In this document: in pieces, positions 58,301 through 64,000 of the stretch | Numbering within the stretch: position 1 is the stretch's first letter | Layout of the letters: each line of letters begins with the position of its first letter | Origin: an uncultured Bacilli bacterium | Lineage (GTDB): Bacteria; Bacillota_I; Bacilli_A; RF39; UBA660 | Direction: 5' to 3' | DNA length: 64,000 nucleotides | Assembly: GCA_910587775.1 (NCBI GenBank) | Contig: CAJUNF010000001.1 | Span: 34,770 to 98,769, forward strand | Notes under the pieces: model-generated | What the model was told of the DNA's origin: nothing | The model's input: only the letters and a program-made list of their open reading frames with translations | Database searches by the model: none | Made by a program: the position numbers and the translations under genes

Positions 58301-61300
58301 ATGAAATTTAATCGTAAGATAAGTGTGTTTTTGTCACTTATAGGAATAATGTTTCTATCTTTAGGATTAGTGTTATCTTTTAGCAAACAATCTTCTTTTG
58401 TTGTTGATACTGAAACAACACTTAATGCTAATATGACTAGTTTGAAGCTAGGACAAGAGGTAACAGTAACATTAAATTTAGGTAATTATAGTGATGTTAC
58501 TAATGGTTATAATGCTTATAAAGCTAAGTTAATATATGATTCAAATATATTTGAACAAGTTTTCCAAGATGACTTTATCTCATTAAATGATTGGGAGGAG
58601 TTAGAGTATAATCCAGATACTTTTGAGTTTGTAGCTATTAAAAAAGCAGGAAGTAAGACTTTAGAAAATGTTGTGCAAGTTAAGTTGCGAGTAAAAACAA
58701 CAGCGAGTTCTGGAACAACTACTATAAAAATAAACAATATTGTTACTTCGGAAGGTCGTAAGGATATTGATGTAGAAGATAAGAGTGTAAATGTTAATAT
58801 TATTAGAGATCAAGAAATTAATCCTGATAATACAGACACAGATAATTCTTCTAATAATAGTAATAATGATAATAATAATAATAATAATTCTGTTATTATT
58901 GATTCTAATAATTCTTCTTCTGGAAGTTCTAATAAAGTTGATGATAGTACTACCACTGATAAAGAAAATGATGATCATAATACTAATGTAACAGATAAAG
59001 ATGATCATGAAGAAACTTTTAATCCAGTGGATGATAATAAGGAAGAAATGATTAAAGAACATAAAGCAGATAATATTAAACGTAATTTTTTTCTTTCATT
59101 TATTATAATAATACTTATATTCCTTATTATTATCATTATTTTATATCGTAAAAAAAAGAATGATAATAATAAACATAATATGTTAGTTATGTTTGTACTT
59201 ACAGGTGTTGGCTTTTTGCTATTTTCAGGTTCTGTATATGCTGCCTATAATTTATTTAAAGGTGAACTTAATGAGGACGGTCAAATCAATTATGATGACT
59301 TGAAGTTATTAGAGCTTCATCTAATAAATAAGAAGATTCTTCCTGATTATTTATTAGAAAATGCAGATATGAATAGCGATGATAAAATTACGGTAACTGA
59401 TTTAACTCTTTTGGTACAGAAGTTAGAAAAGACATTAGATTATGAGGTAACATTTACTGAAATCGATCAACAAAATCAATATGTATCAAAAAATAGTAAT
59501 TTTACATTAAGTTTTAAAGCCACAGTTCTTTATGGAGCAAAGATAGAGAGAGTTAAAATTAATGGTATTTATTATGATGTTGTAAAAGATAGCGATAATG
59601 ATATTTATCACGTTTCTCTAAACGCTTCTAATAAAGCGGGTTCTATTAACTATCACTTTAGTGAAGTAATATTAAATAATGAGCAAACAGTAGATGTTGA
59701 TTTTACAGAATCTATAGAAGTATTAAAAGAAAAACCAAGTATTACTAATTATGTTGTTAAGGATAATCTTAATGATTCAACGCTTAATATCATGTTTAAT
59801 TTGGAAGATATTGATTCTTCACTTACCTTTGGTAGTGTTCAAATTACTGATGAAGCTGGTAACATTGTAAAAGAACAAGATATTCAAAAAGGTTCTAATA
59901 GTATTATGTTATCTGTAGTAGAAGATAAAATTTATATTGCTAAATTTAATATAGGTTATAATTTAACAAATGATAAAGACTTAGTTGATAGTAATTTTGT
60001 TGGTAACATTGAACAAGAGAAAGAATTACAATTGATTGGTGATTATCAATTTGAGATATCTAATTTTGTAACTGAAAAAGATACTTACTTTGCAACTGAA
60101 AAAGTTAAGATATATTTTGATAGTTCTAATATTAGTAAATATGTTCCTAATCAAATTAGAATCAATGGTCAAGATTATGCTGTTAATATTGAAAATGGTA
60201 AATATGTTGTAATTTTACCTGAATTTAAAGATTTTGGTAAAAAAGCTATTAAACCAGAGATGATTGTTTTAAGTAACGGTAAGGCATTTGAAATTGAAGA
60301 AGATATTGATTTAAATATTAATGTTATTAAGAGAGTGCCTACTGTATCAGAGTTAATGTTAGAAGAAAATGATGAAAATGGTGAAGTAACAATTAATTTT
60401 GATGTTAATGATGAAGATTCTGCATTATCTAAAATGTTTATTGAAATTAAGGATGAACAAGGTAATTTACTTGAAAAAATTGAATTCAATAGCTCTGAAT
60501 TAACAGGATCTAAACATATTACAAAAGTATTTAAAAATTTAGGAATTGTTTCTAGTTATTATGTAAATGTTATTGCAAGTTATTCTCAAACTGATAATGA
60601 TTCAGATTCTAAAGAAGATGTTGTGTTATATCAAAAAGATTTTATAGCAGCATTTAAAGCTAATATTATTTCTGTAAGTAGTGATAAACAGTATTATGAA
60701 AAAGGGGAAAATGTTACACTTACTTACAAAGTAACTACGAATGGATCTCATGATATTTCTAAGATTCGTATCAATGGACAAGATTATAATGCGATAAAAT
60801 TAGAAAAAGATTTATATCAAGTAGTTTACAAAGCTTCTACAGATGCTATTGTTGAAGATCTTAATACTAGTAAAGTTATTTGTACTAGTGGGAATGTTGC
60901 TAGTGTTTCTAATCAAGTACAAATTGAAATACTTAAAGATGTTCCTAAAATAAGTGATTACAAGGTTAGCAGTAATAATAAAGATGCAAAAGTTGTGTTA
61001 GATTTTAATATCATTGATAATGACAATAGTTTTATAGAAGGTAATGTAGTACTTATTCGTAAAGACGGTTCTGTTGTAATGAATAAGTCTATTAAAAGAG
61101 GAAAAAATAATGTAGAATTTGATGTTGAGTTCTTTACTACATATGATGTAAAAGTTAATGTTACTTATGATAGAGATAGTGTATCAGATTCAACTAATAA
61201 ATTTACTACTACGATTTATTCTTCTGAAATTTCTGAAATCATTGCTGGAGAGTTCTCTATTAATAATGTTAACGTTATTAAAAATAATGAAAGTTCTAAA

Positions 61301-64000: not shown

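Follow-up and report, generated by a model that had tools for sequence, protein, structure and literature searches.

A giant M26-family protease precursor carrying a cohesin and a dockerin on either side of a membrane hairpin: a candidate self-tethering surface enzyme

The window, a 64,000-nucleotide stretch of DNA from an uncultured Bacilli bacterium, ends inside a giant gene whose product, judged by homology, is almost certainly the front half of a surface zinc protease of about 3,400 residues that belongs to the M26 (IgA1-protease) family. A cohesin and a dockerin stand on either side of a membrane hairpin in this protein, and we propose, with a probability of about 0.6, that the dockerin-stalk-protease would be cleaved off and would dock again on the anchored cohesin of its own precursor, where the cleavages, the topology and the pairing are what we infer. 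The fuller version of the proposal, to which we give slightly less than even odds, is that a precursor cut at the surface would yield an anchor and a giant protease rejoined by the cohesin and dockerin of the same chain, with signal peptidase making one cut and, in the relatives that have an LPXTG motif, sortase making the second. What is new here is that a cohesin precedes the anchor and that a dockerin follows the second signal peptide; the M26 hairpin itself was already known.

The frame from 58301 to 64000 of the forward strand translates into 1,900 codons with zero stops, as claimed in the initial annotation, and it continues past the window end, which is why it is absent from the program-made list of open reading frames. 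The ATG at 58301 is the earliest possible start because an in-frame TGA lies just 5' of it at 58295-58297, and a candidate ribosome-binding site, GGGTGG, is found about 8 nt 5' of this ATG. The site that had been proposed as an extended -10 promoter is the best promoter-like one upstream of the ATG, with 10 of 12 consensus matches and the TG present, but the count of such sites in the AT-rich upstream region is no higher than in shuffled controls. The features of the gene are collected in Table 1.

Table 1. Features of the giant open reading frame and of the region upstream of it, with positions in the window and residues of the encoded protein (arrow, predicted cleavage site)
Feature	Position (nt)	Residues (aa)	Strand	Basis
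Promoter-like site: TTGATT, 16-nt spacer, TATAAT with TG before the -10 (extended -10)	58241..58268		+	Consensus match only
N-terminal signal peptide or signal anchor (MKFNRK, hydrophobic aa 7-27)	58301..58387	1-29	+	Sequence; AF2 helix 5-27
Cohesin module, type CohA	58412..58810	38-170	+	Pfam, AF2, Foldseek, identity to split-locus adaptor cohesins
Disordered acidic Asn/Asp/Ser-rich linker	58811..59071	171-257	+	Composition; pLDDT below 50
Relic of LPXTG sortase motif: NIKRNFF, where relatives have LPKTGRNY in register	59072..59092		+	Junction alignment and census
TM1, hydrophobic helix of a former cell-wall sorting signal, predicted stop-transfer anchor	59087..59146	263-282	+	Sequence, AF2
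Lys-rich loop RKKKNDNNKHN, predicted cytoplasmic	59147..59179	283-293	+	Sequence
TM2, internal signal peptide with a predicted signal peptidase I site at its end (SVYA↓AY)	59180..59242	294-314	+	Homology; published Zmp model
Type I dockerin, type DocA	59267..59425	323-375	+	Pfam, AF2, fused/split identity
Seven tandem units of ~203 aa, each two beta-sandwich (FnIII/Ig-like) domains	59432..63685	378-1795	+	Repeat comparison, AF2
First ~105 post-repeat residues, cut by the window end	63686..64000		+	Align with the L002 region where the Peptidase_M26_N and IgA1-protease matches begin

A dockerin-bearing adhesin had been among the first readings of the gene, one that gave way once full-length orthologs were found to continue into an M26 zinc metalloprotease domain. 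These orthologs have about 3,380-3,490 residues and are 88-91% identical to the window protein; one of them, L002, aligns with it end to end (88% over aa 1-1320, 91% over aa 1455-1900). Pfam Peptidase_M26_N is matched by L002 (E 4.9e-34) and L022 (2.5e-41), with scores of 115-142 bits among the orthologs against a cutoff of 27.7, and L064 has Peptidase_M26_C (5.2e-34; 118 bits, cutoff 22) and GLUG besides Peptidase_M26_N. A single HExxH occurs in every complete ortholog, and the HEFEH of L002 aligns with the HETAH of L064 (E 2e-71), the full-length orthologs having an M26-homologous HEXXH domain. In particular, the C-terminal half of L002 matches the S. pneumoniae IgA1 protease (6XJA, 6XJB, 7JGJ) with E 2e-45 over more than 1,000 residues. 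The NCBIfam models of ZmpB, A, C and D also give matches (E 1e-24 to 1e-58), with scores of 82-199 bits that are far below the cutoffs of 3,000 for all four; by these scores the protein belongs to none of the four named paralogs ZmpA, ZmpB, ZmpC and ZmpD. NCBI gives the name 'ZmpA/ZmpB/ZmpC family metallo-endopeptidase-related protein' to a cluster mate.

The protease identity rests on orthology because the window contains no catalytic sequence. By orthology, the protein would continue for about 1,600 residues past the window, the catalytic domain with its HExxH among them, and the alignment with L002 places the expected HExxH about 810 residues past the window end (aa 1900). Scanned alone, the final 200 residues in the window, which cover only the start of the Peptidase_M26_N region, gave no protease or other significant match. 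The catalytic domain of the window's clade is divergent, because Pfam M26_C has no match in this clade, L002 included, and a 401-residue piece around the HExxH of L002 has, on its own, no PDB match; its specificity may thus differ. As to the substrate, family and habitat lead us to guess at glycoproteins of the host mucosa, for example IgA or mucin. Pfam scans of the protein and of its orthologs found no carbohydrate-active enzyme domain.

The modules upstream of the protease largely agree with what the initial annotation had described. A predicted secretory signal peptide, or signal anchor, stands at the N-terminus; in the window's clade it lacks a clean AxA site, and the homologs end in VQA↓A or VYA↓A. 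The cohesin-like domain that follows is a cohesin by profile and by fold. Indeed, Pfam PF00963 (Cohesin) matches aa 46-165 over profile positions 8-139 of 139, with 29.2 bits against a cutoff of 24.1 bits, when aa 1-183 are scanned alone, a scan of the entire 1,900-residue protein giving no Cohesin match. AF2 predicts a beta-sandwich at aa ~38-170 with pLDDT mostly 85-97, and the top 29 Foldseek matches of this model in the PDB are all cohesins, led by 2JH2, 2W1N and 2VO8 of C. perfringens (E about 7e-8, target TM 0.70-0.74). The Asn/Asp/Ser linker is evident from the composition of aa 171-263 (23 N, 16 D, 11 S), where pLDDT falls below 50; the single-chain AF2 model of the protein has a pTM of 0.39.

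Past the membrane hairpin, the two-segment type I dockerin that had been suggested right after TM2 was recovered as Pfam PF00404 (Dockerin_1), scoring 26.9 bits when the whole protein is scanned and 33 bits for the segment by itself (cutoff 22.9 bits). Its two loop/helix segments have the predicted calcium-binding loops NEDGQINYDDL and DMNSDDKITVTDL, and AF2 models a three-helix module (pLDDT ~83-88). The claim of at least seven tandem repeats of about 200 residues also held, the seven units being 21-33% identical in pairwise comparison and one more in number than in L002; a variable repeat region between anchor and protease is a trait of M26 enzymes. AF2 predicts each unit as two beta-sandwich domains (pLDDT 91.5, pTM 0.80), and the region is likely to be a stalk. 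The idea that the repeats belong to an adhesin family was dropped because, against solved structures, they match generic FnIII/Ig-like folds only and no described adhesin family.

The double-TM hairpin with its signal-peptide-like second helix stands as first described, with AF2 helices at aa 252-285 and 292-318. It had been presented as an unrecognised architecture, which it is not, as such a hairpin is a known hallmark of the M26 family. The TM1-TM2 junctions were compared from raw junction listings; simple hydrophobicity segmentation mis-split TM2 in many sequences. Two hydrophobic segments, the second with a signal-peptidase-like site, are conserved at the sequence level in 37 of 37 fused proteins, that is, the window protein and those of 36 other loci. 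LPXTG itself is present in 16 of the 37 (window included), with near-variants in 3 and in-register relics in 18. The window has NIKRNFF at the motif position and retains the hydrophobic segment and the basic tail; by this census, LPXTG is a trait of the relatives that was lost in the window's clade, although the organism has a wall, as indicated by MurA, PBP1A and SpoIID encoded in the window. A wall-less host, for which 'Mycoplasma/Tenericutes' labels of MAGs might speak, was rejected as the cause of this loss on account of the same three proteins.

The Lys-rich loop would play two parts, charged tail for the sorting signal and n-region for the second signal peptide, and the corresponding loops of relatives contain 3-7 K+R. 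TM2 shares homology with the signal peptide (..GVIYA↓T..) at the N-terminus of giant proteases that are separately encoded at 30 loci, and the TM2 of fused relatives keeps the small-residue -3/-1 pattern (V/I)(Y/F)(A/G).

These relatives bear on whether the gene is real as it stands. The same single-ORF fusion is found at the 36 other loci in independent assemblies and reaches down to 32-35% identity with different junction DNA; in parallel, 30 Clostridia loci carry the same modules as separate genes (two-gene split loci). The hosts are uncultured Bacilli and Clostridia, mostly from mouse gut, and in a neighbour-joining tree the fused and split forms are interleaved, with no clean direction of fusion or fission. 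The suggestion that a scaffoldin gene was fused to the gene of a dockerin-bearing adhesin is partly right because split versions exist, at the 30 two-gene loci and in two frameshift-broken close relatives: an anchoring and a dockerin unit are indeed joined, but the second unit is a protease.

It had also been considered that sequencing or assembly had merged two genes. Such a merger, of an anchored cohesin gene with the adjacent giant dockerin gene through an error in the A-tract of the Lys codons, can be imagined because the two broken relatives, L001 and L009, are split exactly there (A6 in L001 vs A8 in L003, which is otherwise identical) and because differences in A/T-tract length likewise split zmp genes in streptococcal draft genomes (PMC3518915). 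It is nevertheless highly improbable, as independent assemblies have one ORF at all 36 loci, the broken versions are a minority of 4 of 41, and the Met of TM2 has no ribosome-binding site 5' of it. In the window the tract is an A8 homopolymer inside the loop codons (59150-59157), and we speculate that it might act as a slip-strand switch by which the protease would be turned off and the anchor kept.

In the mechanism that we propose, the first signal peptide would start Sec export and bring the cohesin and the acidic linker outside the cell; TM1 would then stop the transfer and leave the Lys-rich loop in the cytoplasm, and TM2 would restart export as an internal signal peptide. Signal peptidase I would cut after VYA (aa 314) and thus free, outside the cell, a product made up of the dockerin, a stalk of 14 beta-sandwich domains and the protease. 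The freed enzyme would stay on the cell because its dockerin would bind, in a calcium-dependent manner, the cohesin from the same precursor. In the Clostridia relatives this cohesin would be fixed to peptidoglycan by sortase via LPXTG, and in the window's clade, where the motif has decayed, it would be held by the TM1-TM2 membrane hairpin. Self-polymerisation at the cell surface, as the initial annotation had envisaged, becomes improbable with a cut between the two modules: the half with the cohesin would remain at its anchor, and a 1:1 tether is to be expected.

Were TM2 left uncut, the protease would be integral to the membrane through its hairpin, with cohesin and dockerin both outside and binding either in cis, as a stiffer base of the stalk, or in trans, as a lattice (the latter being close to the earlier idea of self-polymerisation). 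We regard this as unlikely, even if one cohesin and one dockerin per chain permit head-to-tail links and the window's clade may favour membrane retention because it has lost LPXTG and its first signal peptide has no clean AxA. Indeed, the homologs of TM2 in the 30 split loci are genuine N-terminal signal peptides whose -3/-1 pattern is kept, and a second signal-peptidase site has been proposed after the second TM of streptococcal M26 enzymes (PMC3518915). In addition, mature IgA1 protease is reported to begin 56 residues past LPXTG (PMC9637739), and at the L064 junction the predicted mature start is about 59 residues from it. Moreover, an enzyme that is covalently anchored would have no use for a conserved tether of high affinity, whereas no other part of the N-terminal region is as well conserved as DocA (65-70% identity). 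An uncut TM2 would, for its part, speak against the re-docking proposal, since the protein would already be membrane-anchored and a cohesin-dockerin pair redundant in cis.

The pairing assumed in the re-docking proposal draws on the types of the modules. DocA is one type in fused and split forms (65% mean identity, vs 31% to DocB, the adaptor's own dockerin), and CohA and the adaptor cohesins at split loci are 46% identical on average, vs 26% for CohA and the anchor cohesin CohB. Since these are two clearly separate types, and since the ratio of cohesin to dockerin in the fused proteins is strictly 1:1, CohA would pair with DocA and CohB with DocB. The proteins of the split loci include the adaptor, a 1,263-residue protein ending in cohesin-X-dockerin, the anchor cohesin and large proteins with C-terminal dockerins, and the CohB protein is predicted to be anchored by LPXTG or TM; these loci would thus encode a protease-adaptor-anchor chain that is shortened in the fused form. 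When all split loci were searched within the fetched flanks, the anchor-cohesin gene was found at L046 and L050 only. At the other split loci, a large intervening gene pushes the anchor-cohesin gene beyond the fetched flanks.

Partners in trans could replace this pairing within one precursor: the cohesin would display other dockerin proteins, and the protease would attach, through its dockerin, to an anchored cohesin from another place in the genome. In keeping with this, the split loci encode several proteins with cohesins or dockerins and related MAGs have two paralogous fused genes; the view of the genome is 64 kb, so that further partners may lie outside. The arrangement nonetheless seems to us quite improbable, given that each of the 37 fused proteins has exactly one cohesin and one dockerin, that wherever upstream sequence exists CohA is always in the ORF of DocA or in the gene directly upstream, and that the two separate module types fit the pairs CohA-DocA and CohB-DocB.

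M26 proteases (IgA1 protease, ZmpB, ZmpC) are major virulence factors of streptococci, and their N-terminal LPXTG-plus-hairpin anchor has a proposed processing model only. Retention of the downstream enzyme on the cell is not obvious, since the part that sortase would attach lies upstream of the motif. With a cohesin as the upstream fragment and a dockerin at the start of the enzyme, the idea of an anchor with non-covalent cargo becomes explicit and can be tested with two small domains. If true, the proposal would provide a first example of a cohesin-dockerin system that is encoded in cis and tethers itself, would explain in concrete terms how N-terminally anchored M26 proteases are retained after processing, and would take cohesin-dockerin assembly beyond the degradation of carbohydrates to giant proteases directed at the host. 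The occurrence of the same modules as one, two or more genes offers a natural series for the study of gene fusion and fission. The architecture also explains the annotation of such genes as 'hypothetical', as 'dockerin repeat protein' or as two separate genes. The family is a large and unstudied one of uncultured, mostly mouse-gut Firmicutes, with 294 database representatives at E<=1e-30 (the continuous match to the N-terminal part recurs in about 40 of the best 150), and it may target mucosal IgA or mucins.

Nothing relevant was found in the open-access literature on a cohesin or dockerin together with M26, IgA protease or a zinc metalloprotease. The M26 enzymes of streptococci and Gemella (IgA1 protease/ZmpA, ZmpB, ZmpC, ZmpD) have the same order of parts, namely signal peptide, N-terminal LPXTG, two TM segments of which the second is a putative internal signal peptide, repeats, and a protease with Peptidase_M26_N and HExxH (PMC3518915; PMC9637739), and the orthologs of the window protein are homologous to them over more than 1,000 residues. 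Unlike in these enzymes, a folded cohesin is inserted here between the first signal peptide and the anchor motif, a dockerin comes straight after the second signal peptide, LPXTG is lost in the window's clade and the hosts are uncultured Bacilli and Clostridia, mostly of mouse gut. In contrast to IgA1 protease, whose connecting regions are described as unstructured (PMC9637739), the repeats are ordered tandem pairs of beta-sandwiches, and the window ORF and three orthologs gave no match to a G5 domain when scanned with Pfam.

In cellulosome scaffoldins, as would be the case in the split loci, the dockerin of an enzyme binds an adaptor cohesin and the adaptor's dockerin, of a second type, binds an anchored cohesin; the anchor is a sortase or SLH one in cellulosomes and LPXTG in the split loci. 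Unlike in a cellulosome, each protein here has a single cohesin and no arrays, the cargo is an M26 protease with no carbohydrate-active enzymes, and the fused form translates anchor and cargo as one chain. In C. perfringens, a non-cellulosomal cohesin-dockerin pair assembles secreted, host-directed glycosidases, and the cohesins of its GH84C and GH33 are the closest structural matches to CohA, at a sequence identity of only 18-22%. There, the two modules belong to separate enzymes and link one soluble protein to another; here a single precursor has both, one to each side of a membrane hairpin, and their binding would tie the protease to its own anchor. Clostridioides difficile SlpA, a precursor from which cleavage makes two S-layer subunits that remain joined on the surface, differs in its folds and cutting protease and has neither a membrane hairpin nor a cohesin-dockerin pair; by analogy, it provides the example of one precursor that is cut after export into two products held together on the cell surface, as is proposed here.

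The giant open reading frame starting at ATG 58301 is, with a probability of about 90% judged from sequence comparison, an M26-family (IgA1-protease/Zmp zinc metalloprotease) gene whose product carries a cohesin and a dockerin flanking the family's hairpin. The initial annotation had considered a dockerin-bearing giant adhesin; this reading was dropped, as full-length orthologs are proteases and the frame represents their N-terminal half. Along its full length, the window protein aligns with the protein of the homologous locus L002, which is complete at 3,379 aa (88% and 91% identity; L002 residue 1790 corresponds to window residue 1900). 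Full-length orthologs match Peptidase_M26_N (E 4e-33 to 2.5e-41), exactly one HExxH is present in each complete ortholog, and the C-terminal half of the L002 protein can be aligned with structures of the S. pneumoniae IgA1 protease along more than 1,000 residues (E 2e-45). The NCBI models for ZmpA, B, C and D all match the family with scores far under their cutoffs, and a cluster mate is already named 'ZmpA/ZmpB/ZmpC family metallo-endopeptidase-related protein' by NCBI. The protein of another locus, L064, additionally carries Peptidase_M26_C and a GLUG motif. In the window's own clade the catalytic region is divergent by sequence: Pfam M26_C finds no match there, and a 401-aa fragment around the HExxH of L002 has no PDB match. 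L064 passes M26_C, and its HETAH lines up with the HEFEH of L002 inside a 600-residue alignment (E 2e-71). Since the window itself ends before the catalytic sequence and the last 200 residues of its protein, searched alone, match nothing, the protease identity rests on orthology.

A sequence search with the first 433 residues retrieved homologs in which Pfam Cohesin and Dockerin occur together. In reference genomes, 79 loci were identified; almost every one comes from an uncultured gut MAG with the label Bacilli, Tenericutes or Clostridia, and many belong to mouse-gut catalogues. Among 1.84 billion cluster representatives searched with a profile, 294 match at E<=1e-30 and 2,122 at E<=1e-10. 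Of the 150 best, about 40 are longer than 1,000 aa, and in these a single uninterrupted match extends from residue ~1 across cohesin, hairpin and dockerin and into the first repeat. Larger relatives (P0061, 6,693 aa; P0067, 6,181 aa; P0075, 5,721 aa) contain 17-18 matched stretches, some starting with 300 cohesin-X-dockerin-like residues and some with the dockerin region far inside.

Each module named in the initial annotation was found in the window protein (coordinates in the table). The cohesin passes Pfam when the N-terminal residues are scanned alone; a scan of the whole protein returned no Cohesin match because the low-complexity linker masked it. An AlphaFold2 model of the N-terminal region was built from a 39-sequence alignment, and its top 29 PDB structural matches are cohesins without exception, the best being 2JH2, 2W1N and 2VO8, non-cellulosomal modules of C. 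perfringens. One modelled repeat unit comprises two beta-sandwich domains (pLDDT 91.5) that resemble only generic tandem FnIII/Ig-like pairs among solved structures. Stalk repeat copy number differs between close relatives (88-91% identical), as reported for streptococcal Zmps. The frame spans 1,900 codons without a stop, and ATG 58301 is its earliest possible start because an in-frame TGA lies two codons upstream; its absence from the six-frame track is mechanical, due only to run-off at the window end. The extended -10 site proposed as promoter of this gene is present and is the best candidate by sequence, but the DNA, at 27% GC, shows no enrichment of such sites.

Coordinates of features in the window and in homologous loci
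Feature	Locus	Position (nt, strand)	Residues	Remark
Giant ORF	Window	58301-64000		
Promoter candidate	Window	58241-58268		TTGATT-16-TATAAT with TG extension
First signal peptide	Window	58301-58400		..GLVLSFSKQSS..
Cohesin region	Window		~38-170	Beta-sandwich, confident (AlphaFold2)
Pfam Cohesin	Window		46-165	29.2 bits, gathering score 24.1 (aa 1-183 scanned)
Hairpin, two long helices	Window		252-285 and 292-318	AlphaFold2
Dockerin region	Window		320-378	Small helical module (AlphaFold2)
Pfam Dockerin_1	Window		323-375	Over threshold
A8 tract	Window	59150-59157		
Seven ~203-aa repeats	Window		378-1795	
Repeat additional to L002	Window	62261-62665	~1321-1454	
A6 tract	L001	~10858-10863		
Broken A-tract	L009	~10863-10869		
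OLE RNA, full-length	Window	15538-16041 (-)		241.6 bits, E 5e-67
169-aa ORF	Window	14968-15477 (-)		Weak CNNM-like membrane-domain match only
584-aa ORF	Window	4783-6537 (-)		No NCBIfam or Pfam match
183-aa ORF	Window	56335-56886 (+)		No NCBIfam or Pfam match; Cys-rich GADCPLCGG motif
115-aa YabG-like ORF	Window	57753-58100 (+)		Directly upstream of giant gene
Multi-gene cohesin-dockerin protease locus	L046	9974-19776		Clostridia MAG
Multi-gene cohesin-dockerin protease locus	L050	2663-14109		Clostridia MAG
Two giant M26 genes in tandem	L045	1-7890; 10847 onward		

The 115-aa ORF matches the model of the sporulation peptidase YabG over its first ~60 of 283 positions only and is a short or truncated form; a 104-aa version occupies the same place in L001. 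Elsewhere in the window, the 169-aa ORF just downstream of the OLE (ornate large extremophilic) RNA may encode the associated membrane protein of this RNA.

An assembly artefact merging two genes had been raised as a possibility. In L001, a close relative, two genes stand where the window has one: the Lys codons after the first hairpin helix (TM1) contain A6 as compared to A8 in the otherwise identical, in-frame L003, leaving an intact cohesin anchor and, separately, a giant ORF; the break in L009 falls within this tract as well. A8 is retained in the window, L002, L003 and L005. Even at 32-35% identity, and with unrelated DNA at the junction, the fusion persists, so the fused form is the normal state and not a merger. 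The breaks would be either homopolymer sequencing errors or real slip-strand variants acting as an on/off switch for the protease; streptococcal genes in drafts are likewise split by differences in A/T-tract length (PMC3518915).

Among the loci retrieved, an HMM-based census counts 36 besides the window with cohesin and dockerin fused in one ORF, and 30 from Clostridia in which these modules are spread over separate genes. In these split loci, a ~320-aa adaptor (signal peptide, cohesin, ~80-aa X domain, dockerin) lies immediately 5' of the giant gene, whose N-terminal signal peptide (..GVIYA/T..) is homologous to the second hairpin helix (TM2); as in the fused form, the KGELN dockerin, the repeats and HExxH come after it. 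Of the available evidence, this homology speaks most strongly for TM2 as a signal peptide. Two split loci encode a third protein with a signal peptide, a divergent Pfam-passing cohesin, a Pro/Thr-rich linker and, at the C-terminus, either LPQTG or a basic-tailed TM helix. The dockerin of the protease (DocA) shares 65% identity across the fused and split forms and only 31% with the C-terminal dockerin of the adaptor (DocB), and the fused-protein cohesin (CohA) groups with that of the adaptor (46%), away from the anchor cohesin (CohB; 26%). The simplest reading of these sequences is a chain in split loci of DocA-CohA (protease to adaptor) and DocB-CohB (adaptor to wall anchor); as only CohA and DocA are present in fused proteins, their pairing would there join the protease directly to the anchor. 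A distance tree of dockerin plus stalk, which is not robust, interleaves both forms, a hint that fusion or fission took place more than once. In L046 and L050 the adaptor (cohesin-X-dockerin) is accompanied by a giant M26 protease with a dockerin and by an anchored cohesin of the second type; a further L050 protein, of 1,263 aa, has cohesin-X-dockerin at its C-terminus, and homologs of it come after the giant gene in L044, L047 and L055. Pairs of paralogous fused proteases (~40% identical) within one MAG (L002/L014, L003/L025, L010/L018) raise the question of cohesin-dockerin specificity.

A canonical LPXTG precedes TM1 in 16 of 37 fused proteins and a near-variant (IPKTG, ATRTG, SPSTG) in three; in the other 18, among them the window, only an in-register relic is left (NIKRNFF in the window and IKKTTKTY in other Bacilli, where Clostridia have LPKTGRNY). 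MurA, a class A PBP, SpoIID, SpoVT and the YabG fragment are encoded in the window, adjoining dnaA, dnaN, gyrB and gyrA; a wall-less host was rejected on the basis of the first three. Hosts of close orthologs (L007, L008 and others) carry the labels 'uncultured Mycoplasma sp.', 'Tenericutes', 'Bacilli' or 'Clostridia', which are unreliable since these peptidoglycan and sporulation genes indicate a walled Firmicute of a spore-forming lineage.

On balance, we lean towards a self-tether mechanism. Export would begin at the first signal peptide, with the cohesin and the acidic linker folding outside the cell; TM1 would stop transfer, leaving the Lys-rich loop inside, and TM2 would re-initiate export. 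Signal peptidase I would then cleave behind VYA at residue 314, and the freed dockerin, stalk and protease would re-bind the cohesin, wall-linked by sortase in LPXTG relatives and membrane-held by the hairpin in the window's clade. Fourteen beta-sandwich domains would form a long stalk. Cleavage is argued for, not proven, because a conserved tether is only sensible if the chain is cut between the modules. The predicted site lies ~59 residues past the LPQTG of L064, counted from its junction; mature IgA1 protease is reported to start 56 residues past LPXTG (PMC9637739). The first signal peptide lacks a clean AxA in the window's clade, unlike in distant homologs, where it ends VQA/A or VYA/A; it may be an uncleaved signal anchor, and the cohesin could then be held at both ends.

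The architecture had initially been described as unrecognised, but the hairpin is a hallmark of the M26 family, described for streptococcal enzymes (PMC3518915). Open-access literature on cohesin or dockerin with M26, IgA protease or zinc metalloprotease yielded nothing relevant, which is not proof of novelty. In the streptococcal enzymes, LPXTG follows the signal peptide with no domain reported between them (PMC3518915), whereas in the window's family a cohesin occupies this place and a dockerin directly follows the second signal peptide. Thus, what is new with respect to the described streptococcal enzymes is the cohesin before the anchor together with the dockerin after the second signal peptide.
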